Origin: Candidatus Komeilibacteria bacterium
GTDB lineage: Bacteria > Patescibacteriota > Patescibacteriia > UBA1558 > UBA10009
Length of the DNA stretch: 64,000 nucleotides
NCBI GenBank assembly: GCA_030688315.1
Contig: JAUYIT010000017.1
Coordinates: 2,845-66,844 of the forward strand
Direction: 5' to 3'
The notes under the pieces were generated by a model that was not told the origin of the DNA, ran no database searches, and was given only the letters and a program-made list of their open reading frames with translations. Positions 1,615 to 51,437 of the stretch are shown here, piece by piece. The stretch's first letter is position 1, and every line of letters starts with the position of its first letter. The position numbers and the translations under genes are program-made.

Positions 1615-2571
1615 TTAAATATGTGTAAGTTTTTTTTGATACCAGTCAAACAGTTTTTTTACGCCTTCTTGATATAAAGTTTTTGGTTCCCAGCCGAGCA
1701 AGCTTTTAGCTTTGCTAATATCGGCGTAGGTCTGATTGACGTCGCCCGGGGGAAAAGGCAAATTTTCTATAATCGCTTTTTTGCCCGTTGTTTTTTCCAA
1801 AACTTCAATCATCCGGTTTAGGGTAATAGTTTGCGAGCCGCCCAGATTGATAATTTCAAAGCCCAAATTTTTATTTAAACAGGCAATAATACCGTCAACA
1901 ATATCATCCACAAATGTGTAATCGCGCCGCGATTCTCCGTCGCCGTACTTGGTAATGGGCTGGCCGTTTATAATACTATCCAACATTTTAAAATGCGCCA
2001 TATCCGGGCGGTTGTTAGGCCCGTAAACCGTAAAAAACCTAAGGCAAATCACGTTTAAATGGTAAAGATGGTGGTAATTAAAGCAAAACAGCTCGCAGGC
2101 CTTTTTGGTGGCCGCGTACGGGCTGATAGGGTAATCCACGTTGTCGGTTTCGGCAAAAGGCACTTTGGTGTTGTTGCCGTAAACGGAGGAGGAAGAGCCA
2201 AAAATTAGGTTTTTAATCCCGTGCTTTTGGCAGGCCTCCAAAACATTAAAGGTGCCAATGATGTTATTAACGCTAAAGCCCTCAGGGTCAATAAGCGAAG
2301 CCCGCACGCCGGCTTTGGCCGCCAAATGGATGACTGTATCGATTTTATGTTGAGTAAAGATTTTTTCCAGGCCAGCTTTATTTAAAATATCTTCGGTTGC
2401 CAGTTCAAAATCGGGATTATTCAAAAAGCTCGCGATGTTGTTTTTTTTGACAATCGGAGAATAGTAGTCGTTAAAATTGTCCAAACAAATAACCTCGTGT
2501 TTTTCTTTGAGCAAGCGTTCGCAGAGGTTTGAGCCGATAAAGCCCGCTCCGCCCGTGACTAAAATTTTCAT
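1615..2571 (-). CDS. NAD-dependent epimerase/dehydratase (UDP-glucuronate 4-epimerase / UDP-glucose 4-epimerase-like SDR)
   Basis: 318 aa with N-terminal TGGAGFIGS Rossmann motif, a YxxxK catalytic motif (SPYAATK) and an extended-SDR fold. Confidence 0.7.
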   Translation of the reverse strand: MKILVTGGAGFIGSNLCERLLKEKHEVICLDNFNDYYSPIVKKNNIASFLNNPDFELATEDILNKAGLEKIFTQHKIDTVIHLAAKAGVRASLIDPEGFSVNNIIGTFNVLEACQKHGIKNLIFGSSSSVYGNNTKVPFAETDNVDYPISPYAATKKACELFCFNYHHLYHLNVICLRFFTVYGPNNRPDMAHFKMLDSIINGQPITKYGDGESRRDYTFVDDIVDGIIACLNKNLGFEIINLGGSQTITLNRMIEVLEKTTGKKAIIENLPFPPGDVNQTYADISKAKSLLGWEPKTLYQEGVKKLFDWYQKKLTHI

Positions 2572-2587
2572 AAGATTGAATGTCCGT

Positions 2588-3958
2588 TTATCTGCCGCCG
2601 CGTTTAAAAATTATGTTAATGGTTTTTAAAACAATGCTTAAGTCAAAAAATAAAGAACGGCGCTTAACGTAATACAGATCGTATTGCAGTTTTTTTAAGG
2701 TGGCTTCCACTGAATCGGCGTAAGCCAGATTTATTTGCGCCCAGCCGGTCAAACCCGGCTTAATTAATAATCGTTCGCGGTAAAAGGGAATTTCTTTTTC
2801 CAGCTGGTCAATAAATTCCGGCCGTTCCGGCCGCGGGCCCACAAAGCTCATATCGCCTTTAAGGATGTTAATCAGTTGAGGGATTTCATCCAGTCGGATT
2901 TTTCTAAAAAACCTGCCGATGTTGGTAACGCGAGGATCGTTTTCCTTGGCCCAGGTTGCTCCGGATTTTTCCGCGTTCTGGTACATGGTTCTAAACTTTA
3001 AGGCCACAAAATTGTTGCCATCTTTGCCTACCCTGATCTGCTTAAAAATCACCGGTCCTTGGCTGGAGATTTTTATTGCCAAAGCGATAAAAGGGGAAAG
3101 GGGCAGAGCCACGAAACCGAAGATTAAAGACAGGATAATATCCAGCAAACGCTTGCCGGATTCGTAAAAAGTTTTACTGCCTTCGGCCAAATTGTCCAAA
3201 AACCAGCCGCGGCTGATGATTTTTAAGGGCACGCGGTAGGTGATGTTTTCGTAAAAATTGGTTAAGCTGACAAAATTGACCCGCAAGGGCAAAATTTTAA
3301 ACAGCAGATTGATAATTTCTTCATTGCCCGGCTCATTAATAACCAGTAAACTTATTTTTTCATTTTTAATGGCCTCGGTCAGCTGGTTAAAAGGGTAGGT
3401 GGTTAAGTTGGTTATTTCCGGGTCAAGAGGAGTATTAGTCACAATGCCTTTGTAAACATAGCCGTAACGCTGTTCAGCTCCGCTTTTGGGCAGAATTTCC
3501 TTGATCAGCGGTTCGTAGCCGATAAACAGAACCGCCGGGTACAACTTTTTTTGGTAGTTGATCCGATGGGCCAGCTTGCGCCAAACAAAGTAAAAAATGG
3601 TAAAAACGCCGATTAAAATAACCAGCACCGTGCGCGGCCGAATTTCATTTTTTGGGTAAAAAGCGTAAAAATAAATAAAACCCAGCCCAAGGTTAATAAC
3701 CGTAACTTTTAAATATTGGTTTAAAAACTGCACGCCCGATTGGGTGGAAGCGGGGTCAAACAGGTTGAAGGAATAAAAAATGATCAGCCATAAAGCGAAC
3801 AGCCAGGTAAACGGTTCAAAGTGCAACTGCCACAGGTTAACGTTATAGTCGCTTTGATAGCGGATAATCAGGGTTAGCCATAAACTTAAGTAAAACAGCC
3901 CAATAGTGCTTAAAAAAGCCGCGATTTTTCTGATTTTTAGACCATTATAGATTTTCAT
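2588..3958 (-). CDS. initiating polyprenyl-phosphate sugar phosphotransferase (bacterial sugar transferase, WbaP/EpsL-like)
   Basis: 456 aa with N-terminal TM helices. The C-terminal Bac_transf core reads LDIILSLIFGFVALPL...KFRTM...DEIPQLINILKGDMSFVGPRPERPEF. Confidence 0.8.
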   Translation of the reverse strand: MKIYNGLKIRKIAAFLSTIGLFYLSLWLTLIIRYQSDYNVNLWQLHFEPFTWLFALWLIIFYSFNLFDPASTQSGVQFLNQYLKVTVINLGLGFIYFYAFYPKNEIRPRTVLVILIGVFTIFYFVWRKLAHRINYQKKLYPAVLFIGYEPLIKEILPKSGAEQRYGYVYKGIVTNTPLDPEITNLTTYPFNQLTEAIKNEKISLLVINEPGNEEIINLLFKILPLRVNFVSLTNFYENITYRVPLKIISRGWFLDNLAEGSKTFYESGKRLLDIILSLIFGFVALPLSPFIALAIKISSQGPVIFKQIRVGKDGNNFVALKFRTMYQNAEKSGATWAKENDPRVTNIGRFFRKIRLDEIPQLINILKGDMSFVGPRPERPEFIDQLEKEIPFYRERLLIKPGLTGWAQINLAYADSVEATLKKLQYDLYYVKRRSLFFDLSIVLKTINIIFKRGGR

Positions 3959-9616: not shown

Positions 9617-9645
9617 TTGATTATAAAGGTTGTTTGGGTTATAAT
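9617..9645 (+). promoter_or_regulatory. sigma70-like promoter: TTGATT (-35), 17-nt spacer, TATAAT (-10)
   Basis: Near-consensus hexamers with ideal spacing sit 85 nt upstream of the GT2 start at 9730. The predicted transcript would include the 9659-9682 hairpin. Confidence 0.4.
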
Positions 9646-9648
9646 TTG

Positions 9649-9693
9649 GAGCGAGGGAGGAAAGAAAGCAAGCTTTCTTTCCGAGCGAGCGAA
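9649..9693. repeat. GC-rich hairpin element flanked by GAGCGAG / CGAGCGAG motifs (copy A of a REP-like family)
   Basis: gGAGCGAGggagg-[ggaaagaaagc aa gctttctttcc]-GAGCGAGCGaa. The 11-bp stem is a perfect inverted repeat. The composition is GC-rich against an AT-rich background. Confidence 0.55.
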
Positions 9694-9729
9694 TAAATTA
9701 TACCCTGTATAATTTATTAAGTTATTTAC

Positions 9730-11507: not shown

Positions 11508-12668
11508 ATGGGTAAATACATTTTTACATCCGAATCGGTGACCGAAGGCCACCCTGATAAGGTCTGTGACCAGATTTCGGACGCTATTTTAGACGAGTTG
11601 CTAAGGCATGACCCTGAATCACGCGCCGGCATTGAGTGTATTGCTACCACGGGTTTAGTAGTTGTGGCCGGTGAAATTAGAACCAATCATTATGTTGATA
11701 TTGCCGGTATTGCCCGCCAAACCATTAAAGACATTGGTTATAACGGAGCTTCGGCCGGTTTTTCGGCGGAGGATTGCGGGGTGATGGTGGCGATTGATGA
11801 ACAGTCGGCTGATATTGCCCAGGGCGTGGATAAGGGCAAAGGCAAATACAAAGAGCAGGGCGCCGGTGATCAGGGTTTAATGTTCGGATTTGCTTGCCGT
11901 GAAACCAAAGAATTGATGCCGTTGCCGATTATGCTGGCTCATAAAATGGCTAGGCGGTTGGCGGCTGTCCGCAAAAGCGGATTATTAAAATATTTGCGCC
12001 CCGACGGTAAAACCGAAATCGCGGTGGAGTATGAAAATGGCAAGCCCCGCCGGGTTGATACGATTGTAATTGCCGCCCAGCATAACGAAACGGTTTCGGA
12101 AAAAAAAGTTGAACGCGATATTATCAATAAAGTTGTTAAACCGGTTTGCGGCAAATATCTTGATGCCAAAACCAAATTCTTTATTAATGCTACCGGCAAG
12201 TTTATTAAAGGCGGCCCGGTGGCTGATACCGGTTTGACCGGGCGTAAAATTATCGTGGATACTTACGGCGGTTATAGCGCTCACGGCGGCGGTTGTTTTA
12301 GCGGCAAGGATCCTTCAAAAGTTGACCGAAGCGCTTGCTACATGGCCCGCTACGTGGCAAAAAATATTGTGGCCGCGGGTTTAGCCGATAAGTGCGAAGT
12401 TCAGCTGGCTTACGTGATTGGGCGCGCTGAACCCGTTAGCGTGCTGGTTAAGTCATTTGGCACTGGCAAATTGCCGGACGAAAATTTGGAAAAAATAGTC
12501 AGACAGGTTTTTCCTCTAAAACCGGCCGAGATAATCAAACACTTAAAATTGAAGCGGCCGATTTACAAAAAAACCGCGGCTTACGGCCACTTTGGCCGAA
12601 CCGAACCGGAGTTTACCTGGGAAAAAACAGATCTAGTAAGCAAGTTGAAGAAGTATTTGGTTAAATAA
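11508..12668 (+). CDS. metK: S-adenosylmethionine synthetase
   Basis: 386 aa. [24 protein letters not shown] and [16 protein letters not shown] are canonical MetK motifs. Confidence 0.95.
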
Positions 12669-15144: not shown

Positions 15145-16284
15145 ATGAAACGAATTTTGATTTTTGCCACTGCCTATTACCCTCACGTGGGGGGAGCGGA
15201 AGTGGCGGTTAAGGAAATTACCGACCGTTTGCCGGGTTATGAATTTGATTTGATCTGCGCCCGATTGGAAAAAAATTTGCCTCAACAGGAAAAAATCGGC
15301 CAGGTCAATGTTTTTAGAGTGGGCTGGGGCCTGCCTCAAATTGATAAAATTTATTTGGCTGTTTGCGGCTATTGGCTGGGCTTAAAACTTCAGCGCCAAA
15401 AAAAATATGATTTGGTTTGGGCGATTATGGCCAGTTATGGCGGTTTTGCCGCCTTGGCCTTTAAACTTAAAACAGGGGTCAAATATTTACTGACTTTACA
15501 GGAGGGCGATTTTAATTTAAAAACCAAGCGCAAAATTTGGCTGGTCAAAAAAAAATTCGCCAACATTTTCAGCCAAGCCGACGGCTTGCAAGCCATCAGC
15601 AATTATTTATTGAACTGGGGTACAGCCATGGGTTTTAAGGGCCTAGCCGAAGTGGTGCCCAACGGCGTGGACGTAAAAAATTTTACCAAAGTTTATGAGC
15701 AGTCGGAATTAAAAAAAGTTAGAGATAGTTGGGGTTTTGATCGGTCAGCGATCATTTTAGTCAGCGCCTCCCGCTTGGTATTAAAAAACGGCCTAGCTGA
15801 CCTGATTAAGGCCCTGCCGTTGCTTCCGGAAAATTTTTGTCTGGTGTTGATCGGTGAAGGCCGGTTAGAAAAAAATTTACGTCAATTGGCCGATAATTTA
15901 GGATTATCTTCACGAATTTATTTTGCCGGTTATCATGATCATCAGGAACTGCCGCGCTTGCTGGCCGCCGCCGATATATTTATTAGGCCATCGTTAAGCG
16001 AGGGCTTGGGCAACGCATTTTTGGAAGCGATGGCTACGCGTTTGCCCACCATCGGAACTTTGGTTGGCGGCATCCCGGATTTTTTGACGGATGGCCAAAC
16101 CGGATTGGTTTGCGAACCGGGTAATCCGCAAAGCATCAGCCAAGCGATTGTTAAAGCGTCCAAATTGTCTGTTCAGGAAAAACAAGCGCTTCATCAAAAC
16201 GCCATGGCGTTGATTGAAAAAAAATACAATTGGGAGTATATTGCTGGTAGAATGGATGCTATTTTTAAGGGTTTAACCGCTTAA
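15145..16284 (+). CDS. GT4 glycosyltransferase
   Basis: 379 aa. The C-terminal EGLGNAFLEAMATRLPTIGTLVGG E-x7-E motif marks a GT4/GT-B retaining fold. Confidence 0.8.
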   Translation: MKRILIFATAYYPHVGGAEVAVKEITDRLPGYEFDLICARLEKNLPQQEKIGQVNVFRVGWGLPQIDKIYLAVCGYWLGLKLQRQKKYDLVWAIMASYGGFAALAFKLKTGVKYLLTLQEGDFNLKTKRKIWLVKKKFANIFSQADGLQAISNYLLNWGTAMGFKGLAEVVPNGVDVKNFTKVYEQSELKKVRDSWGFDRSAIILVSASRLVLKNGLADLIKALPLLPENFCLVLIGEGRLEKNLRQLADNLGLSSRIYFAGYHDHQELPRLLAAADIFIRPSLSEGLGNAFLEAMATRLPTIGTLVGGIPDFLTDGQTGLVCEPGNPQSISQAIVKASKLSVQEKQALHQNAMALIEKKYNWEYIAGRMDAIFKGLTA

Positions 16285-25477: not shown

Positions 25478-25506
25478 TTGAAAAATAACCTATAAATTGG
25501 TATAAT
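25478..25506 (+). promoter_or_regulatory. sigma70-like promoter: TTGAAA (-35), 17-nt spacer, TATAAT (-10)
   Basis: Near-consensus hexamers upstream of the GT-C gene. The predicted leader contains hairpin element B. Confidence 0.45.
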
Positions 25507-25530
25507 TTGTATAACTTTATAAGCGACATA

Positions 25531-25579
25531 GAGCGAGTGAAGCAAAAAAGTAAACTTTTTTGCTTCCGAGCCGAGGAGC
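25531..25579. repeat. GC-rich hairpin element flanked by GAGCGAG / CGAGCCGAG motifs (copy B of a REP-like family)
   Basis: GAGCGAGt-[gaagcaaaaaag taaa cttttttgcttc]-CGAGCCGAGGAGC. The 12-bp stem is perfect. Confidence 0.55.
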
Positions 25580-25593
25580 TTATATGTACTCAT

Positions 25594-27234
25594 ATGGTTT
25601 ATTGGTTTAAAAAAATTAAGATTGATTGGGGTCTGCTTGTTGTAATTTTGTTAGGACTGCTTTTTTTATGCACCTATTCATATCTTGCTCGCCAACTGCC
25701 CGCTGATTGGTCGAACGACCCCAAATTGATTTTAAATTCGCCCGATGAAACAGCCAATTTGTTTTTTGCCAGACATTTCGCAGAAACAGGCAGTTTATCA
25801 TTTACTGACCCAGCCAATACCATTGCCGGCGAATTGGTCAGCCCGCGCAGTATGCGGGTGATTAACGGCCAAACCGTGCCCGCCGGCTTTATCGGTTTGC
25901 CTATTGTTTATGGAACATTAGCCAAAGTTTTTGGCTTAAACGCCATCCCGCTTTTTACCCCGATTTTAGCCATAATCGGGATTATTTTTTTCTACCTGAT
26001 AGTTAAAAAATTATTCGGGCACCAAGCGGCCTTATGGTCGTCCGTTTTTGCTTATGTTTTACCGGCTTATTGGTATTACAGCGCCAAAGGCCTAATGCCT
26101 AACATCGCTTTTTTGGTATTTTTTATTATTTCTTTGTATTTTTTCCTTCAATCGCTTGACCAAAAAAAGTTATTTTATTATCTGTTCTTCGGCGTATTTT
26201 TGGGATTAAGTTTAATGATCAGAACTTCGGAAGTTGTTTGGCTCGGTCCGTTGTTTTTACTTTTGACTTTGTTTAACCTTAAAAGAGTTAGTTGGCTTTA
26301 TTTGTTTTGTTCGGTGGTTATGGCGATCTTGTTTTTTACGCCGGTATTGTATTTTAACCAACAGATTTACGGCTCGCCTTTATCCGTCGGTTACTCCTTA
26401 AATAATTTATTGGTTGGACAAACTCCGGTTGAACAGGGGCTTTCGGTGGTCAAACAGATTTTTTTGCCTTTTGGAGCCGATTTTAAAACTTCAGCCATTA
26501 ATTTTTATCACTACACTTACGTTTTATTCCCATTGTGGACAATTTTAGCAGCCGTCAGTTTTTTGCTTTCCATCTTCCTGTTTATTGTTCAAAAAAAATG
26601 GCGATTGTTGGCCTATGCCGGCTTATTCCTTTTATTTAGCGCGTATTTAATTGTTTATTATGGCAGTTGGAGGTTTAACGATAATCCCGATCCAAATGCC
26701 GTTACCATCGGTACGTCTTACGCCAGATACTGGTTGCCGATTTATTTGTTCAGTTTGCCTTTTATCGGCTGGTTCATTTCAAATTTGTTGAAAAAATTTA
26801 CCATTGCCAAACCCGCTTTTGGAATTTTTCTTTTCACTTGTTTATTCTTAGTCAGTTATCCCACCGTCATGCTGGGCTCGCAAGAGGGGGTTTATCAGGT
26901 GGCAAAAAATTTAGAGGAATACCAACGCTTGGGCCAGTCGGTTTTTGATAAAACTGAAGCTAATGCCATAATTATCGCCGGTCGGCTGGATAAAGTTTTT
27001 TTTCCGGTCCGTTCGGTGATTTTTAAATTAAACAATAGCGGGGATTATGATAGAATAAAAGGATTAGTTGAAGGCGGTTATCCGGTTTATTATTTTGATT
27101 TTACTTTACAGCCGGCTGACGTAGCGTATCTTAATCAAACCGTTTACTCCGCTTATGGTTTAAATTTAAGCGATGAACTGCTTAAATTTGGTAAGCAAAG
27201 TTTGTTTCAGATTAAGTTGAAAAGCAATTTGTAA
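25594..27234 (+). CDS. GT-C fold glycosyltransferase, GT39/GT83 (PMT/ArnT)-like
   Basis: Polytopic membrane protein with a first-loop SPDETANLFFARHF DE motif typical of PMT/ArnT. Start chosen at MVYWFKKIK; the ORF track starts at 25507 and would translate the leader hairpin. Confidence 0.6.
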   Translation: MVYWFKKIKIDWGLLVVILLGLLFLCTYSYLARQLPADWSNDPKLILNSPDETANLFFARHFAETGSLSFTDPANTIAGELVSPRSMRVINGQTVPAGFIGLPIVYGTLAKVFGLNAIPLFTPILAIIGIIFFYLIVKKLFGHQAALWSSVFAYVLPAYWYYSAKGLMPNIAFLVFFIISLYFFLQSLDQKKLFYYLFFGVFLGLSLMIRTSEVVWLGPLFLLLTLFNLKRVSWLYLFCSVVMAILFFTPVLYFNQQIYGSPLSVGYSLNNLLVGQTPVEQGLSVVKQIFLPFGADFKTSAINFYHYTYVLFPLWTILAAVSFLLSIFLFIVQKKWRLLAYAGLFLLFSAYLIVYYGSWRFNDNPDPNAVTIGTSYARYWLPIYLFSLPFIGWFISNLLKKFTIAKPAFGIFLFTCLFLVSYPTVMLGSQEGVYQVAKNLEEYQRLGQSVFDKTEANAIIIAGRLDKVFFPVRSVIFKLNNSGDYDRIKGLVEGGYPVYYFDFTLQPADVAYLNQTVYSAYGLNLSDELLKFGKQSLFQIKLKSNL

Positions 27235-27235
27235 A

Positions 27236-28735
27236 ATGAAAACATTTTTTAACAATCTTTATCAAGTCAGCCGAGTGATTATCATTATTGTTCCTTTTAT
27301 TGTCCTTGGTTGGCTGATAAAAAAGGATCTGGCACTAAGCGGTCATTTGGAATTCAACTATGATTTTAACCAGGACTCGCCGGTTATTACCAACTTGTTT
27401 CCGGCCAACCGTTTGACCCAAGTCAATTTTGACCAAACTTCAAAACAGCATTGGCAGACCGTGATTCAGGAACCGGTTTATTTTGAAGCGCGTTTGCCGC
27501 AAAAGTTTGATACGGCCAGAGTGGAGGTTGTATATCAAAATCAGAACCAGCCCCTGATTCAAATGGGTTTAAGAACCCTCGGCAATGACGAATGGAATTA
27601 CAATTTTAAGCCCTTGGAAAATCAGTTATTGGACAAGCTGGATTGGTTCAAATTAACTGACGAACAGGGTACTATCTGGCAGAAAAAGAAAAATTTTTTA
27701 ACCCGGGAGCAGTTTACAGCAGCCGTGCCTTCGCTAAACAATCTGGCCGCTTATGATTACGCCTTGCCCAGAAAATTCTTTTTGCCCAATTACCGTCCGT
27801 CCAACGAGGAGCGGGTTATAACCAAGGCCTTGCGCGGTTCGCATAGTTTTTATACTTACTTAAAAAATGAAACCCTGGATTTTACTTTTATCATCCAGGA
27901 TATTAACCGCACGCTTGGGCCGGATATGTTTGTTGTGGAAGTTTACAACGAAGCCAATAAAAAAGTTTATGACGCCAAACTTAAAGATGACGGCACAGTT
28001 AATAATTTTGACGGCTCAACGCCCCGCCGTGATTTAGCCGTTAAAGTGGCTGGTTTGCCTGAAGGCGTGTACCGTTTGGAACTTAAGGCCGAAGATGATA
28101 TTTTTATCAGAACAATCAGAACCAAGCAACAGTATGTAACTTTTATCAACCGTTTGTATTTGGTTGATAATCCCGAGTATTCGGACGGTTTTTTGGACTT
28201 AACTTATCAGCCGACCGCGATTTACAGCAATATTCCGCGTTTGGGTTTTTACACTTCGCATCCGCAGGGTTTGCAGACCGTGGGCATTAATAAAGATCAG
28301 AGTGTTGAACTAATTGCCACCCACCAGAATTATTTTATTACGGCCAACAGTTTGCCGGCAATTGTTTACTCGCCCAAAAACGATCTTAAAATTTTCGGCC
28401 GGGGCTTAATGGCCTTTTCGCAAGACATGTTTTTTAATCCGGAAATTTACAGTTTGCGCGATTTAACTTTAACGCCGGATATTGAATACATTATCAGTTC
28501 CTATCAAACGCCCGCGCCGCTCGAGCATGGTTGGAAAAAGGGTCAGGTAACTTTTTCTTTGCAAAACGCCCAGATCGTTAACCGCAAATTGCGCTTTGGC
28601 TTAAGCGCGCCGGAAATGAATACGGCTCATGACCTTATTCCCATCCAAAGCATAAAAATTATTTTTGACCGCCAACCAATGAGTTACAGCGAGCTGTTTC
28701 AGAAAATAATTAAATACATTAAAGATAGGATTTAA
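27236..28735 (+). CDS. hypothetical membrane-anchored extracytoplasmic protein, co-transcribed with the GT-C gene
   Basis: 499 aa with a single N-terminal TM helix. The gap to the upstream GT-C gene is 1 nt. Confidence 0.45.
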   Translation: MKTFFNNLYQVSRVIIIIVPFIVLGWLIKKDLALSGHLEFNYDFNQDSPVITNLFPANRLTQVNFDQTSKQHWQTVIQEPVYFEARLPQKFDTARVEVVYQNQNQPLIQMGLRTLGNDEWNYNFKPLENQLLDKLDWFKLTDEQGTIWQKKKNFLTREQFTAAVPSLNNLAAYDYALPRKFFLPNYRPSNEERVITKALRGSHSFYTYLKNETLDFTFIIQDINRTLGPDMFVVEVYNEANKKVYDAKLKDDGTVNNFDGSTPRRDLAVKVAGLPEGVYRLELKAEDDIFIRTIRTKQQYVTFINRLYLVDNPEYSDGFLDLTYQPTAIYSNIPRLGFYTSHPQGLQTVGINKDQSVELIATHQNYFITANSLPAIVYSPKNDLKIFGRGLMAFSQDMFFNPEIYSLRDLTLTPDIEYIISSYQTPAPLEHGWKKGQVTFSLQNAQIVNRKLRFGLSAPEMNTAHDLIPIQSIKIIFDRQPMSYSELFQKIIKYIKDRI

Positions 28736-28750
28736 TCGACTAAACCGTCA

Positions 28751-28786
28751 TTGCGAGGAGTCGAGCTTAGCTCGACGACGAAGCAA
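28751..28786. repeat. GC-rich interrupted hairpin (variant of the GAGCGAGG element family)
   Basis: ttgcGAGGAG-[tcgagc tta gctcga]-cgacgaagcaa. Outer ttgc/gcaa also pair. It lies in the 5' region of the 28800 gene. Confidence 0.4.
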
Positions 28787-28799
28787 TCTCGATGAATTT

Positions 28800-29198
28800 A
28801 TGAGTAGACAGTTTAACAGTTTCATTAAGTACCTTGGCGAATACATCGCCAATATCAGCCCGACGTTTTTTATTGTTTCGTCGCTTTCTTTTATTGTTTA
28901 TTTTGCTTTGGAAAATTTTAAAGTCGGCTTAATCAGTAATTATTTTGATTTGAATTTATTAATGCTGGTGGCGCTGGCTAGCGGCCTAGTGGCCATCTTT
29001 TATTATGAAAACAGGGCTAACCTAAGCGGAAAAAATAAGCCCTATCTCTTTAGCTTGTTCTTTGCTATAATTTTAGGACTGTTTTTGGCTAAATACCTGG
29101 CTGATTTTGGTAAAATCGGCCTGTTTACGGCCGTTTGCGGTTCAATCAGCGTTTATCTCATAATTGATCAAATGTATGATTCACGGCGTCAAAATTAA
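28800..29198 (+). CDS. small hypothetical membrane protein
   Basis: 132 aa with 3-4 TM helices. Confidence 0.4.
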   Translation: MSRQFNSFIKYLGEYIANISPTFFIVSSLSFIVYFALENFKVGLISNYFDLNLLMLVALASGLVAIFYYENRANLSGKNKPYLFSLFFAIILGLFLAKYLADFGKIGLFTAVCGSISVYLIIDQMYDSRRQN

Positions 29199-29652
29199 AG
29201 AATTAAAGCCCATTACCGATGGAAGGGGTTTGTTAATGGAGTTTTTGCGTGATGATGATGAAGTGTTTGAAAAATTCGGTCAGGTTTATCTCACGTTAGT
29301 CAAAAGGGGAACGGTTAAGGCCTGGCATTTTCATGAACTGCAAGATGATTATTTTATTTGCGTGGAAGGCAAGGCGTTGGTGGCGCTGTATGATATGCGT
29401 AAAGATTCACCAACCTACGGCGAGGCGCAGGATTTTGTTTTGTCAGCTCCGGAAGTTGAAGGCGATCATTTGTTAGTTAAAATCCCCAAAGGCGTGGCGC
29501 ATGGTTTTACGGCCGTTGAATGCGATCAGGCCAAAATCGTCAATGTGCCCACGATGCATTACAATTACGATCAGCCCGACGAAATCCGCTTCCCTTGGAA
29601 TGATCCGAATATTAATTATCAGTGGCCCGCTGAAGTTAAAAGTGGTGGCTAG
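29164..29652 (+). CDS. rfbC: dTDP-4-dehydrorhamnose 3,5-epimerase (cupin)
   Basis: RmlC-like cupin with PITDGRGLLMEF...KAWHFH...IPKGVAHGF. The true start is probably MIHGVK at about 29176. Confidence 0.7.
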   Translation: MIKCMIHGVKIKELKPITDGRGLLMEFLRDDDEVFEKFGQVYLTLVKRGTVKAWHFHELQDDYFICVEGKALVALYDMRKDSPTYGEAQDFVLSAPEVEGDHLLVKIPKGVAHGFTAVECDQAKIVNVPTMHYNYDQPDEIRFPWNDPNINYQWPAEVKSGG

Positions 29653-29662
29653 TAAAAAATAT

Positions 29663-30067
29663 ATGGACTGTATTTTCTGCAAAATAATTGAAGGGGAATT
29701 GCCGTGCTATAAGGTTTATGAGGATAAGCGTGCCTTGGCGTTTTTGGATATCAATCCCGTCAACAAAGGTCATGTGTTGATTGTTCCCAAGGAACATCAT
29801 CGTAATTTTTTGGATTTGCCCAAGGATTTGCTAAAGGATTTAACCTCCTTGGCGCAGGATTTGGCGCAGAACATTATGGACGGCGTAGGAGCCACGGCCT
29901 TTAATTTAACCGCCAACAACGGCAAGGAAGCCGGCCAGCAGGTGGAACATTTCCATTGGCATGTTATTCCGCGCTTTGCCAACGATCATTTGCATCATTG
30001 GCCGGGCAAAACTTTTTCGGACGAGGAAATGAAAAGATTTACCATGACTATTAGAAAATCAATATGA
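29663..30067 (+). CDS. HIT-family (histidine triad) nucleotide hydrolase/transferase
   Basis: MDCIFCKII... with the HFHWHVIPR histidine triad. The ORF-track start at 29501 is a spurious 5' extension overlapping rfbC. Confidence 0.8.
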   Translation: MDCIFCKIIEGELPCYKVYEDKRALAFLDINPVNKGHVLIVPKEHHRNFLDLPKDLLKDLTSLAQDLAQNIMDGVGATAFNLTANNGKEAGQQVEHFHWHVIPRFANDHLHHWPGKTFSDEEMKRFTMTIRKSI

Positions 30068-31035
30068 GCATTTTAGTTTCAGGTTCAGTGGTTTATGATA
30101 GGATCATGGATTTTCCGGGCGCTTTTAGCGATCACATTTTACCCGATCAGATCCATAATTTAAATGTCAGTTTTTTGGTGAAGGAATTTAAAGAAACTTT
30201 TGGCGGCGTGGCCGCTAATATCGCTTATAATCTGGCTTTGCTTAATGAACGGCCGCAGATTTATTCAGCGGTGGGCAAGGATTTTTCGCCTTACGCTTTG
30301 AGGTTAAAAAAATATAAGATTGATTTAAGCGGAGTTAAAGTTTATCCCGGGCAATACACTTCCAGCGCTTACATCATGACCGATAAAAATGATAATCAGA
30401 TTACCGGATTTTTTCCGGGCGCGATGAATTTTTTTGGCGCTCGGCCAAAATTGAAAAAAGGGGATATTGCCATTGTGGCACCGGGAAATAAAGATGAGAT
30501 GCTGGCTTTGGCCGATTACTATTTTAAAAATAAAATCTTTTTTATTTTTGATCCCGGCCAGCAGATCGGCCAATTTAATAAACAGCAGTTGACTAAAGCG
30601 CTTACTTCCTGCAATATTTATATTGTTAACGATTATGAACTGGCTTTAACCCAAAAAATAACCGGTTTAAATAAACAAGAATTATTAAAAAAATCAGTGG
30701 TGCTAATTACCACTTTGGGCGCCAAAGGTTCCAGTATTGAAATTTATCATAATAATCAGTTTAAGGCGTTTAGCGTTAAGGCGGTTAAGCCAAACAAAGT
30801 TGTTGACCCTACTGGCGCGGGCGATGCTTATCGAGCGGGTATAATCAAAGGATTATTGATGACAAAAGCAATCGGCCATGCCAATCTATTTGACTGGGAA
30901 TGGCTTAAAATCGGCCAGCTGGGCAGTTTATCGGCAAAGTATGCCGTTGAACAATACGGCACCCAAAATCATTCATACAGTTACAATCAGTTTAAAAAAG
31001 ATTATAATTTTAACTTTAATCAAATAATAAACTAA
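30064..31035 (+). CDS. PfkB-family carbohydrate/nucleoside kinase (possible adenosine kinase)
   Basis: 323 aa with the DPTGAGDAYRAGIIKGL PfkB signature and a ribokinase-like fold. It is immediately upstream of ahcY. Confidence 0.7.
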   Translation: MSILVSGSVVYDRIMDFPGAFSDHILPDQIHNLNVSFLVKEFKETFGGVAANIAYNLALLNERPQIYSAVGKDFSPYALRLKKYKIDLSGVKVYPGQYTSSAYIMTDKNDNQITGFFPGAMNFFGARPKLKKGDIAIVAPGNKDEMLALADYYFKNKIFFIFDPGQQIGQFNKQQLTKALTSCNIYIVNDYELALTQKITGLNKQELLKKSVVLITTLGAKGSSIEIYHNNQFKAFSVKAVKPNKVVDPTGAGDAYRAGIIKGLLMTKAIGHANLFDWEWLKIGQLGSLSAKYAVEQYGTQNHSYSYNQFKKDYNFNFNQIIN

Positions 31036-31038
31036 AAA

Positions 31039-32295
31039 ATGAAATACGACGTCAAGAATGTCAAACTAGCTCCAGCGGGAAAGAAACGAATCCTCTGGGC
31101 CGAAAAGCAGATGGATGTGTTGCGCCAAATCTCGGCTAGGTTTGCCAAACAAAAGCCCTTAAAAGGCGTAAAAATGGCCGCCTGTTTGCATGTAACCGCC
31201 GAAACAGCTAATTTGATGAGAACGCTTAAAGCCGGCGGTGCCAGCGTTGTTTTATGTGCTTCCAACCCTTTATCCACGCAGGATGAAGTAGCGGCTTCGC
31301 TGGTTAAAGATTTTGGCATTCCGGTTTTTGCCAGAAATAATATTGATAGAAAAGGTTATTATCGTCATTTAAATTCAGCTTTGGACACTAAGCCGAATTT
31401 GTCTATGGACGATGGCGCTGATTTAGTTTCATTACTTCATACCAAAAGAAAAGATCTGGTTAAGCATATTTTTGGCGGAACCGAAGAAACCACTACCGGC
31501 GTGATTAGATTGAAAGCGTTGGCGGAACAAAAAAAATTATTGTATCCCATTGTGGCGGTTAATGACGCGCAAACCAAGCACTTTTTTGACAATCGTTACG
31601 GTACCGGCCAATCAACCTTGGACGGCATTATCCGCGCCACCAACATTTTGCTGGCCGGAAAAACCGTGGTGGTGGCCGGTTATGGCTGGTGCGGCCGTGG
31701 GTTCGCGCTTAAGGCCAAAGCTATGGGCGCCAAGGTGATTGTGACCGAAGTTGAGGCGGTTAAGGCCTTAGAAGCAGTCATGGACGGTTTTGAGGTTAAA
31801 ACCATGTTGCAGGCGGCTTCCGTCGGCGATATCTTTTGCACTTTAACCGGCGATATTCACGTGATCCGCAAAGAGCATTTTGCCAAAATGAAAAACAACG
31901 CCGTGGTTTGCAACTCCGGCCACTTTGACGTGGAACTGGATTTGGTCGGCCTTAAAAAAATCAGCAAAAAGGTGGAAACGGTCAGGCCGTTTGTGCAGGC
32001 CTATACTTTAAAAAACGGCCGTGCCGTTAATGTGTTAGCCGAAGGCCGTTTGATTAACCTGGCTTCCGCCGAAGGGCACCCGGCTTCGGTTATGGATATG
32101 AGTTTTGCCAACCAATCTTTGGCGGCCGAATTTGTAGTTAAAAATTACAAGCATTTGGAAAAAAGAGTTTACGATGTGACGCAAAAAACGGATGATTACA
32201 TTGCCACGGCCAAGCTTAAGGCCATGGGCGTCAGCATTGATAAGTTGACCGCTGAACAGCAAAAGTATTTGACCAGTTGGGAAATGGGAACGTAG
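31039..32295 (+). CDS. ahcY: adenosylhomocysteinase (S-adenosyl-L-homocysteine hydrolase)
   Basis: 418 aa with NAD-binding [10 protein letters not shown] and conserved AhcY core motifs. Confidence 0.95.
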
Positions 32296-32301
32296 TTTGA
32301 A

Positions 32302-32412
32302 CTGCTCGGTCGGGCAAGAAAACTTTTTGCCCTCGTCTCCGGCCTTCGCCGCGACAGGCGGCTCGCCCGGTATTTTTCACTCGGTTCAAAAAGTTTTCTT
32401 GCCCTTCCTCGC
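32302..32412. repeat. composite palindromic element in the rfbB leader (18-bp perfect inverted arms around a GC-rich core); reverse-orientation member of the GAGCGAGG family
   Basis: The 18-bp arms gggcaagaaaactttttg (32312-32329) and caaaaagttttcttgccc (32387-32404) are perfect inverted repeats flanking a GC-rich core with an inner gccgc gacag gcggc stem. On the minus strand the flanks read GCGAGGAAGG...CGACCGAGCAG. Confidence 0.5.
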
Positions 32413-32427
32413 ATTAATTAACAAGTT

Positions 32428-33429
32428 ATGAATTTACTAGTAACCGGCGGGGCCGGTTTTGCCGGCTCCAACTTTATCAGGTATATTTTGCGGAAGTATC
32501 CCAACTACCGGATTTTTAATTTGGATAAACTGACCTATGCCGGCAATTTGGACAATCTGAAAGATATTGAAGGCAACGCCAACTATAAGTTCATTAAAGG
32601 CGACATTGTTGATCAGCGCATGGTGTTTAAAATCTGCCGCAACAATAAAATCGACGCCATTCTTAACTACGCCGCCGAAACCCACGTGGACCGATCCATT
32701 TTGGATCCCGCTGATTTTGTTAAAACCGACGTCATCGGCACTTATAACATTCTGGAAGCGGTCAAGGAATTCAAGCTTCAAAAATTCGTGCAAATTTCTA
32801 CCGATGAAGTTTACGGCAGTTTAACCAAGGGCCAGTTTACAGAAGAATCGCCATTTTTACCCAATTCACCTTATAGCGCTTCCAAAGCCGGCGCCGATTT
32901 GCTGTGCCGGTCATATGTTAAAACCTATAAACTGCCGGTGGTTGTTACGCATAGCTGTAATTTTTACGGGCCCTATCAGTATCCCGAAAAAATGATTCCC
33001 TTGTTTGTTACCAACCTGATGGAAGGCAAAAAGGTGCCGTTGTACGGCAAAGGCGAAAACACTCGCGAATGGATTTACGTATTGGATCATTGCCGGGCCA
33101 TTGATTTTTTACTGCATAAGGGCGTCAACGGCGAGGTCTACAATATCGGCACGGGCGTGGAAAAAAAGAATATACAAATCACTCAGATATTTTTGGCTGA
33201 ACTGGGTTTGGATAAAAAAATGATTGAATTCGTCAAGGATCGGCCGGGCCATGACTGGCGCTATGCCGTTAATTCAAATAAATTGAAAAAATTGGGCTGG
33301 AGTCCTGAATATGATTTTGACGACGCAATGAGGGAAACAATCCGCTGGTACCAAAAAAACGAGTGGTGGTGGAAAAAACTTAAGTCCGGCGAGTATCTTA
33401 AGTATTACAAAAAACAGTACGGTCTTTAA
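32428..33429 (+). CDS. rfbB: dTDP-glucose 4,6-dehydratase
   Basis: 333 aa with TGGAGFAGSNF, the YAAETHVDRSI and SPYSASKAGADLL catalytic motifs. Confidence 0.92.
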   Translation: MNLLVTGGAGFAGSNFIRYILRKYPNYRIFNLDKLTYAGNLDNLKDIEGNANYKFIKGDIVDQRMVFKICRNNKIDAILNYAAETHVDRSILDPADFVKTDVIGTYNILEAVKEFKLQKFVQISTDEVYGSLTKGQFTEESPFLPNSPYSASKAGADLLCRSYVKTYKLPVVVTHSCNFYGPYQYPEKMIPLFVTNLMEGKKVPLYGKGENTREWIYVLDHCRAIDFLLHKGVNGEVYNIGTGVEKKNIQITQIFLAELGLDKKMIEFVKDRPGHDWRYAVNSNKLKKLGWSPEYDFDDAMRETIRWYQKNEWWWKKLKSGEYLKYYKKQYGL

Positions 33430-41957: not shown

Positions 41958-42031
41958 TCGGGGATCGTCTAATGGTAGGACAGCGGGTTTTGGTCCCGTC
42001 AATTGGGGTTCGACTCCCTGTCCCCGAGCCA
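41958..42031 (+). tRNA. tRNA-Gln (anticodon UUG), CCA encoded
   Basis: 74 nt folded manually: 7-bp acceptor stem (TCGGGGA/TCCCCGA), D-arm GTCT-AATGGTA-GGAC, anticodon stem GCGGG/CCCGT with loop TTTTGGT (UUG), T-arm TGGGG-TTCGACT-CCCTG, discriminator G and 3' CCA. Confidence 0.85.
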
Positions 42032-42073
42032 ATAAAAAAACACCAACAGCTGTTGGCGTTTTTTTATTGGCTC
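42026..42073. terminator. 48-bp near-perfect palindrome overlapping the tRNA 3' end; bidirectional terminator-like
   Basis: gagccaataaaaaaacaccaacag | ctgttggcgtttttttattggctc. There is one mismatch in the 24-bp arms, with a central stem ccaacag/ctgttgg followed by a T-run. Confidence 0.6.
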
Positions 42074-43293: not shown

Positions 43294-43409
43294 GGCGCGG
43301 CCTGACGCATTGTTAAAATTATTAATAGATTTTAAAACGTAGAGACACAAAATTTTGTGTCTCTACGTTGTTTTAATTACCGCCTATGTGTAAAGCGTCA
43401 GGCCGCGCC
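43294..43409. repeat. composite palindromic element: 15-bp GC-rich inverted repeats (GGCGCGGCCTGACGC / GCGTCAGGCCGCGCC) flanking a 17-bp-stem AT-rich hairpin that acts as a bidirectional terminator
   Basis: Outer arms are at 43294-43308 and 43395-43409. The inner perfect hairpin aacgtagagacacaaaa/ttttgtgtctctacgtt is at 43336-43369 and is followed by gttttaatt. It lies between the convergent 42249 and yggT genes. Confidence 0.55.
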
Positions 43410-51369: not shown

Positions 51370-51407
51370 TGCCGACTGAAAGTTGTTGTTGAACAACTTT
51401 CAGTCGG
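51370..51407 (-). terminator. strong rho-independent terminator (17-bp perfect stem) for the minus-strand 3-gene block
   Basis: gccgactgaaagttgtt gttg aacaactttcagtcggc. On the minus strand it is followed by actttttttc. Confidence 0.7.
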
Positions 51408-51437
51408 CTTGATGCTTGCGTGTTCTGCTCAAGATGA

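Follow-up and report, generated by a model that had tools for sequence, protein, structure and literature searches.

Within the 64-kb stretch of Komeilibacteria DNA that we analyzed (the window), a stable hairpin lies between a promoter-like site and the start codon of a GT-C glycosyltransferase gene, and a comparable hairpin, copy A, occupies the leader of a GT2 gene. The question is whether the hairpin of the GT-C gene, copy B, is a regulatory device shared by the two genes, as the initial annotation suggested, or a sequence that arrived there for other reasons. We argue that copy B is probably a member of a family of short, non-coding REP/MITE-like palindromes, dispersed in this Komeilibacteria genome and its close relatives, and that it landed in a short leader. 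The features of the GT-C locus are as follows.

25478–25506, forward strand: promoter-like site TTGAAA-17-TATAAT, matching 11 of 12 consensus positions, with a TG extension; kept in relatives
25518–25584, forward strand: whole extended hairpin of copy B (RNAfold MFE -26.7 to -26.9 kcal/mol, z -4.6 to -5.0)
25531–25537, forward strand: 5' clamp of copy B, GAGCGAG, pairing with 25567–25574 through GC pairs and tandem G.A mismatches (RNAfold)
25539–25566, forward strand: inner perfect stem-loop of copy B, GAAGCAAAAAAG / taaa / CTTTTTTGCTTC, from the sequence
25567–25579, forward strand: 3' clamp of copy B, CGAGCCGAGGAGC, containing the Shine-Dalgarno-like GAGGAG at 25573–25578
25584–25610, forward strand: out-of-frame 8-codon uORF MYSYGLLV* overlapping the start of the GT-C gene, read off the sequence
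25594–27234, forward strand: GT-C (PMT_2 / GT39) glycosyltransferase gene; 25594 is its true start codon

Structure of copy B

Positions 25531–25579 read GAGCGAG-t-GAAGCAAAAAAG-taaa-CTTTTTTGCTTC-CGAGCCGAGGAGC, with a perfect inner stem of 12 bp and a loop of 4 nt, exactly as first described. The GAGCGAG and CGAGCCGAGGAGC boxes that had been taken to bound the hairpin are correct in their letters, but in the RNAfold model they turn out not to be separate boxes: the flanks are the two predicted arms of one longer helix (25518–25584). TATAAGC (25518–25524) pairs with GCTTATA (25578–25584) to form an outer stem, and from there to the 12-bp stem the fold passes through a GC/GC dinucleotide, single G-C or C-G pairs and 2x2 internal loops of GA/GA, three of them in the extended helix. 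The complete layout is TATAAGC-GA-C-aua-GA-GC-GA-G-t-[12 bp stem, 4 nt loop]-C-GA-GC-c-GA-G-GA-GCTTATA. Because 5'-CGAG-3' opposite 5'-CGAG-3' is the classic context of stable tandem G.A pairs in both RNA and DNA, the GA/GA loops probably continue the helix. The clamp design is strand-specific, since the complement would have UC/UC mismatches, and the fold energy is -26.7 kcal/mol for the GA strand versus -22.5 kcal/mol for its complement.

We compared the hairpin content of the window (43.6% G+C) with 20 dinucleotide shuffles. Four perfect hairpins in the window have a stem of 12 bp or longer, versus a mean of 0.1 and a maximum of 1 in the shuffles, and eight have a stem of 10 bp or longer, versus a mean of 1.0. 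Given this excess, the copy B hairpin is not a product of chance. No second exact or near-exact copy of B was detected in the window at up to three mismatches. An intrinsic terminator, which would need a GC-rich stem and then a U tract, was ruled out: no T run lies 3' of the hairpin, and the only match in a terminator scan was a weak 5-bp stem within the 3' clamp.

Other hairpins were noted in the window. A 24-bp near-perfect palindrome at 42026–42073 (GAGCCAATAAAAAAACACCAACAG / CTGTTGGCGTTTTTTTATTGGCTC) begins at the 3' end of a tRNA-Gln gene (41958–42031) and is probably a terminator. Long perfect hairpins at 43336–43369 and 51371–51408 (stems of 15 and 17 bp, 4-nt loops) are intergenic and have neither a clear T tract nor a GA clamp.

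Copy B lies in an insertion in an ancestrally short leader

The GT-C gene and its divergent 707-aa neighbor are syntenic in three relatives, with 78%, 73% and 59% protein identity. In these relatives the -10 box (TATAAT) is kept but lies only 10–15 nt from the ATG, and 75 nt of the window (~25519–25593) face a clean gap when the sequences are aligned. The GA hairpin was found in none of eleven more distant orthologous GT-C leaders, nine of which have TATAAT 0–23 nt before the ATG. With the element missing from all 14 orthologous GT-C leaders from related Patescibacteria, we conclude that copy B lies within a lineage-specific insertion of ~75 nt. The short distance between -10 box and ATG in the relatives further implies that the ancestral GT-C 5' region was very short or leaderless and that the hairpin came in the lineage of the window.

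The near-consensus promoter that had been placed upstream of the hairpin is well founded, and so is the start codon at 25594, which follows from the length of the NCBI protein (546 aa) and from the N-termini of the orthologues. The ATG at 25584 is in a different frame from the GT-C gene. GAGGAG in the 3' clamp is partly paired in the RNAfold model and is probably not a working ribosome-binding site; we dropped it as an element-borne Shine-Dalgarno (SD) sequence, SD-like motifs (GGAG/GAGG/AGGA) being found upstream of only 3 of 53 genes in the window. This scarcity, together with the observation that many -10 boxes of this clade lie 6–23 nt from the ATG, suggests that translation initiation is SD-independent and often leaderless.

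Copy A and the GT2 leader

The second copy reported by the initial annotation was found in the GT2 leader.

9649–9693, forward strand: copy A, GA-GC-GA-[10 bp stem]-GA-GC-GA(G)-CGAA, starting 3 nt past the TATAAT at 9640–9645

Its core (9649–9689) reads GAGCGAG-gga-GGAAAGAAAG-caag-CTTTCTTTCC-GAGCGAG and folds as AUUUG-GA-GC-GA-[10 bp]-GA-GC-GAG-CGAAU, the same design as in copy B. Of the architecture that the two copies were said to share, the GA clamp around a perfect stem holds, but only this generic clamp is common, as the stems and loops differ. Upstream lies TTGATT-17-TATAAT (9617–9645), and the gene that follows encodes a GT2 enzyme, named dolichyl-phosphate beta-glucosyltransferase in the records of relatives.

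Copy A is missing from both orthologous GT2 leaders of L010 and L011, which read TTATAAT-tt(g/a)...TAAGTTCTT-cat-ATG. Compared with these, the GT2 leader of the window has additional sequence between TATAATTTG and TAAGTT; copies of the direct repeat TATAATTT (9640–9647 and 9707–9714) mark its two borders. The second copy of this repeat is half of another perfect hairpin (9692–9718), and the repeat around copy A could be an 8–9 bp target duplication of the -10 box or the product of a fold-back event. That other hairpin, AATAAATTATAC-cct-GTATAATTTATT, has a perfect 12-bp stem and lies right after copy A; its 3' arm includes TGTATAAT, which aligns with the ancestral -10 box of the relatives.

A third GT2 leader, from a relative at 70% identity (L009), carries an unrelated palindromic insert of ~105 nt at the spot of copy A. 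As a side observation, the 70–73% relatives (L009 9870–9985, L002 9918–9962) have a further palindromic family, unrelated to that of copies A and B. Its ends are TCCAGCACCACTTTTTA / TAAAAAGTGGTACTGGA, a related CCCCTTACCACTTTTTAAA hairpin accompanies it, and the insertions are in the GT2 leader and 5' of the GT-C promoter.

A family of GA-clamped elements with common ends

Elements longer than copies A and B, with ends in common among themselves, were found at other sites. In the 73% relative (L002), insertions of 120–140 nt occupy sites that are empty in the window, between the GT2 and DUF2304 genes and between the GT-C gene and the next ORF. A scan of metagenomes for both ends of this type (T-type) recovered the L002/L009 loci and a fourth locus. 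The same-ended elements, (GT)GAGCGAGGGCAAG... and ...CCGAGCGAAC, thus come from four loci: three in the L002/L009 population, the third of which adjoins an HTH_17 gene, and one on other metagenomic contigs. The three L002/L009 elements have 5' (GT)GAGCG(A/G)(G/T)GG and 3' CCGAGCGAAC and form rods or branched folds closed by GA-GC-GA clamps. The fourth (L097) is a 135-nt rod with several GA/GA loops, antisense between two genes, with TTAA on either side. The window itself has one long member.

32299–32415, reverse strand: long T-type member, a rod of ~115 nt with GA/GA loops, flanked by forward-strand genes for AdoHcy hydrolase and a sugar dehydratase

This element has 74% mean column identity to the L002 element (nhmmer E = 1e-24). 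Its rod has 18-bp arms (MFE -58.9 kcal/mol, z -6.3), and the neighboring dehydratase is dTDP-glucose dehydratase-like. A related element (16016–16125) is present at the AdoHcy hydrolase / dehydratase site of L019, a Komeilibacteria relative at 52–57% protein identity; such an element kept at this site could reflect long-term retention, hence function.

Copies A and B are tied to this family by their arms and ends. Copy B and the L002 element have almost identical 3' arms (TTTTTGCTTCCGAGC and TTTTTGCTTGACCGAGC), and the ends of copy A, GAGCGAGGG... and ...CCGAGCGAGCGAATAAAT, are compatible with the family termini, so A and B look like minimal versions from which the interior has been lost. Three to four family members were found in the 64 kb, as extragenic palindromes. 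Rigid rule-based scans for GA clamps missed A and B owing to bulges and alternative registers, and we used RNAfold loop counts instead. In the MFE folds of ten elements, 20 of 26 2x2 internal loops are GA/GA. The GA strand is more stable than the complement in nine of the ten; the exception, from L019, has no GA/GA loop. The ends repeat each other in inverted form apart from the systematic GA/GA positions (for example, GTGAGCGAGGGCAAG matches the reverse complement GTTCGCTCGGTCAAG at 10 of 15 positions).

Filled and empty orthologous sites were found for copies A and B and for the L002 elements at 3027–3149 and 11628–11767, and the flanking genes are syntenic in relatives whether or not the element is present. 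We regard the insertion polymorphism of copy B, its family kinship and its structure as demonstrated. Flanking repeats, all in AT-rich DNA and perhaps due to chance or to the stem itself, are TTAA/TTAA (L097), TAAA/TAAA and TAAA/TAAG (L002), TTATA/TTATA (copy B) and TATAATTT/TATAATTT (copy A). Relative to the flanking genes, T-type elements are sense in five cases and antisense in two, the latter being 32299–32415 and the L097 element, which are antisense to their operons.

Several further observations concern individual loci. In L002 the TGA stop of the GT-C gene falls within the first bases of the element (GTGAGCGA, 11628–11632), so the insertion reshaped the 3' end of the gene. L009 2301–2822, compared with window positions 2571–2588, has an extra 95-aa HTH_17 (excisionase-like) gene and a composite GA-clamped element between the epimerase and Bac_transf genes. 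Contig L001 ends inside an element, at an assembly break. A 15-mer scan of viral contigs for the T-type end gave matches that look like chance, none with a proper 3' end; the loose matches lie mostly in GC-rich coding DNA. One metagenome match (L095) was likewise discarded as a chance match in GC-rich coding DNA.

X-type sister elements

A second type of GA-clamped unit, the X-type, has the ends GTCATTGCGAG...CGAAGCAATC and follows the same clamp logic as the T-type.

28747–28790, forward strand: X-type element GTCATTGC-GA-G-GA-[GTCGAGC tta GCTCGAC]-GA-C-GA-a-GCAATC, between co-directional ORFs of 499 and 132 aa

At the orthologous site in the 73% relative (L002 13271–13387), a larger element with the same ends lies in the opposite orientation. 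The two types also occur together: in L009 (2320–2455), X-type units form an inverted pair nested within a T-type clamp. X-type elements are abundant in other CPR loci (L022, L042, L047, L067, L076, L080 and L091, the last with at least 10 copies within 21 kb). The unit GTCATTGCGAG-N-CGAAGCAATC is also found on more than 120 viral-classified IMG/VR contigs (L099–L218) spanning 36–72% G+C, with up to four or more copies per contig and a 32-nt modal form, GTCATTGCGAGGAGCGAAGCGACGAAGCAATC. Copies between co-directional ORFs are sense in 29 cases and antisense in 42. Clustering of the ORFs beside 224 X-type copies yielded mostly structural proteins of phages and spurious ORFs, and no transposase recurred among them. 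The unit is familiar as a source of spurious small ORFs, its translations including VIASEAKQS, SLRG...RSNL and LAMT. We know of no formal name for it.

We consider it possible, although rather doubtful, that A, B, the T-type rods and the 32-nt GTCATTGCGAGGAGCGAAGCGACGAAGCAATC form one cross-phylum superfamily of strand-specific hairpins defined by stacked tandem G.A pairs (GCGAG...CGA(A)GC). Such a superfamily might be propagated or kept self-complementary by an uncharacterized single-stranded mechanism, or recognized by a GA-helix-binding protein.

How the elements may spread and act

The signature of the family is the GA clamp, whose arms pair by Watson-Crick dinucleotides in alternation with tandem G.A/A.G mismatches (5'-CGAG-3' opposite 5'-CGAG-3'). 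What lies inside the clamp varies: A and B have a simple perfect stem there, and the other extreme is a branched structure of 100–150 nt. Insertion into the nearly leaderless GT-C 5' region moved the conserved promoter ~75 nt further from the ATG. The elements may have spread as non-autonomous mobile sequences, REP/REPIN-like or MITE-like, and a single-stranded intermediate is probable because the full helix is formed by the GA strand only. The strand-specific GA mismatches suggest recognition while single-stranded. The short AT-rich direct repeats at the borders weakly suggest target duplication, and these two hints point to different transposition chemistries.

Copy B would be transcribed as the first ~70 nt of the GT-C mRNA, as a generic 5'-proximal stable hairpin: the predicted transcript starts ~5 nt before the hairpin, and the stem-loop ends 10 nt before the ATG. 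There, by analogy with REP and Correia elements and with other 5' stem-loops, it could alter the GT-C mRNA by raising its stability or hindering ribosome access. We infer that the element is not a specific sensor or co-regulation device. The presence of elements in both orientations (X-type 29 sense and 42 antisense, T-type 5 and 2) argues against a purely RNA-level role.

Several findings speak against the mobile reading. No transposase or other mobilizing enzyme was identified in the visible parts of the genomes. In addition, the copies in one genome have different stems that are each perfectly self-complementary. This is unlike simple copy-and-decay and may be a sign that the fold is under selection or that some mechanism restores both arms. 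The element kept at the AdoHcy hydrolase / dehydratase site of L019 also counts against this reading, as does the position of A and B just after -10 boxes of glycosylation genes, which could be more than coincidence.

Comparison with known systems

REP, BIME and REPIN elements are mobilized by RAYT tyrosine transposases (PMC3116915, PMC3337134). The elements described here resemble them in being short imperfect extragenic palindromes, dispersed as singletons or inverted doublets (here the X-type pair of L009 2320–2455), with conserved nucleotides flanking the hairpin and one strand alone that appears to matter. However, a conserved 5' GT(A/G)G tetranucleotide is lacking, the ends being GAGCGAG / CGAGC in the T-type and GTCATTGCGAG / CGAAGCAATC in the X-type. 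The conserved feature is the CGAG/CGAG tandem-G.A clamp, and stem sequences vary greatly from copy to copy. The ORFs beside the 224 X-type copies included no recognized RAYT gene, and the host is a CPR bacterium, not a proteobacterium. The earlier label "REP-like" is fair.

Correia elements (CREE/NEMIS) of Neisseria and other bacterial MITEs (PMC2649163, PMC10969869) are likewise inverted-repeat elements of 50–150 nt in AT-rich intergenic DNA beside promoters. Shared with them are the hairpin folds, the altered 5' regions of neighboring genes and the presence or absence between related genomes; Correia elements are co-transcribed, as is predicted here. Correia elements differ in that their copies are almost identical, their terminal inverted repeats measure 26 bp, and a TA duplication is clear and an IHF site present; the elements here have arms that differ systematically at GA/GA, ambiguous duplications and highly variable interiors. 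No insertion sequence was noticed at any of the loci that we inspected.

TIGR units of CPR bacteria and phages form regular tandem arrays beside a tas gene, with two 8–12 nt spacers between box C/D motifs (PMC12045711). As in the present elements, their hairpins are palindromic and variable, carry short conserved motifs and occur in CPR genomes, but the elements here are dispersed singletons that form no array. A TIGR array was rejected: no tas (Nop-domain) gene lies nearby, and those neighbors that we checked encode glycosyltransferases or are syntenic genes that lack annotation.

Similarities also exist to motifs of nucleic-acid structure, as opposed to families of genomic elements: tandem sheared G.A motifs, the d(GCGAAGC) mini-hairpin and kink-turns. 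The CGAG/CGAG context recurs in the elements here, and GCGAAGC is present in some X-type units (7 of 150 distinct interiors); unlike in kink-turns, the bulge-plus-GA arrangement is not conserved across copies. The attC core sites R''/R' of integrons (RYYYAAC ... GTTRRRY) bound cassettes. An attC identity was rejected, as the element ends do not fit this consensus and the flanking genes are syntenic with or without the element.

At the gathering threshold, Rfam (release 15) detected only a tRNA in the whole window, and permissive scans of copy B, L009 2280–2490 and window positions 28700–32450 gave only sub-threshold chance matches. Literature searches with the element sequence returned no description, only unrelated primers, and a 2024 review of prokaryotic MITEs makes no mention of Patescibacteria or candidate phyla. 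We read the element as a REP/MITE-like palindromic repeat marked by a periodic tandem-G.A clamp.

Alternative explanations

We assign a low but appreciable probability to the possibility that the element is a generic RNA module for protein binding or processing (a tandem-G.A or kink-turn-like site, or an RNase III site or antideterminant), retained by the host for mRNA stabilization or operon processing whatever its mobile origin. The conservation of the GA/GA loops across diverged copies, the retention of the related element in L019 at the AdoHcy hydrolase / dehydratase site and the sense orientation of five of the seven T-type elements are all in its favor. The predicted fold of copy B also contains a kink-turn-like pattern, with the pair C25527–G25575, an AUA bulge, and G25531 and A25532 opposite G25573 and A25574. 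However, this bulge is missing from copy A and most other copies, the X-type has no sense bias (29 versus 42), the 32299–32415 and L097 elements are antisense to their operons, and no binding protein was identified. Tandem G.A pairs are, moreover, equally stable in single-stranded DNA, which we count against an RNA module.

A dedicated cis-regulatory RNA leader, common to the GT2 and GT-C genes and co-regulating one glycosylation pathway, is in our estimate unlikely. In favor of this proposal, which is that of the initial annotation, are the sense orientation of both copies just downstream of strong promoter-like sites, their significantly stable folds and the plausible participation of the two genes in one pathway. 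Several observations speak against it. The element is missing from every orthologous leader examined (14 GT-C and 2 GT2), and members of the family lie between unrelated genes, some of them antisense. The loops and stems of A and B are not conserved, only the generic clamp being common, and Rfam has no match.

It is very unlikely that the 12-bp inverted repeat is a DNA operator at which a dimeric transcription factor forms a roadblock downstream of the promoter. The perfect palindrome is suitably placed, at ~+26 to +53 from the predicted transcription start, but A and B do not have the same stem sequence, conservation falls on the GA-mismatched flanks, which are non-palindromic in duplex DNA, and the site is missing in relatives. 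Finally, the segment has next to no chance of coding for an N-terminal extension from the TTG at 25507, as in the ORF track: a frame is open from there into the gene, but the NCBI model and all orthologues start at the equivalent of 25594, translation across the hairpin is very unlikely because the entire segment is missing from the orthologues, and with the -10 box (25501–25506) directly adjoining the TTG, initiation there could only be leaderless.

Implications

A dispersed mobile palindrome, our preferred reading of copy B, has consequences at several levels. For this locus, the gene start is corrected, and GAGGAG should not be taken as a ribosome-binding site where SD sequences are scarce. 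The CGAG/CGAG clamp is an unusually clear signature, usable for annotation and for the removal of spurious small ORFs, and it could direct a search for the enzyme or protein that recognizes the elements. CPR genomes are very small and are regarded as poor in repeats. A dispersed hairpin family that reshapes leaders close to promoters would supply regulatory variation to the surface-glycosylation clusters of these bacteria.
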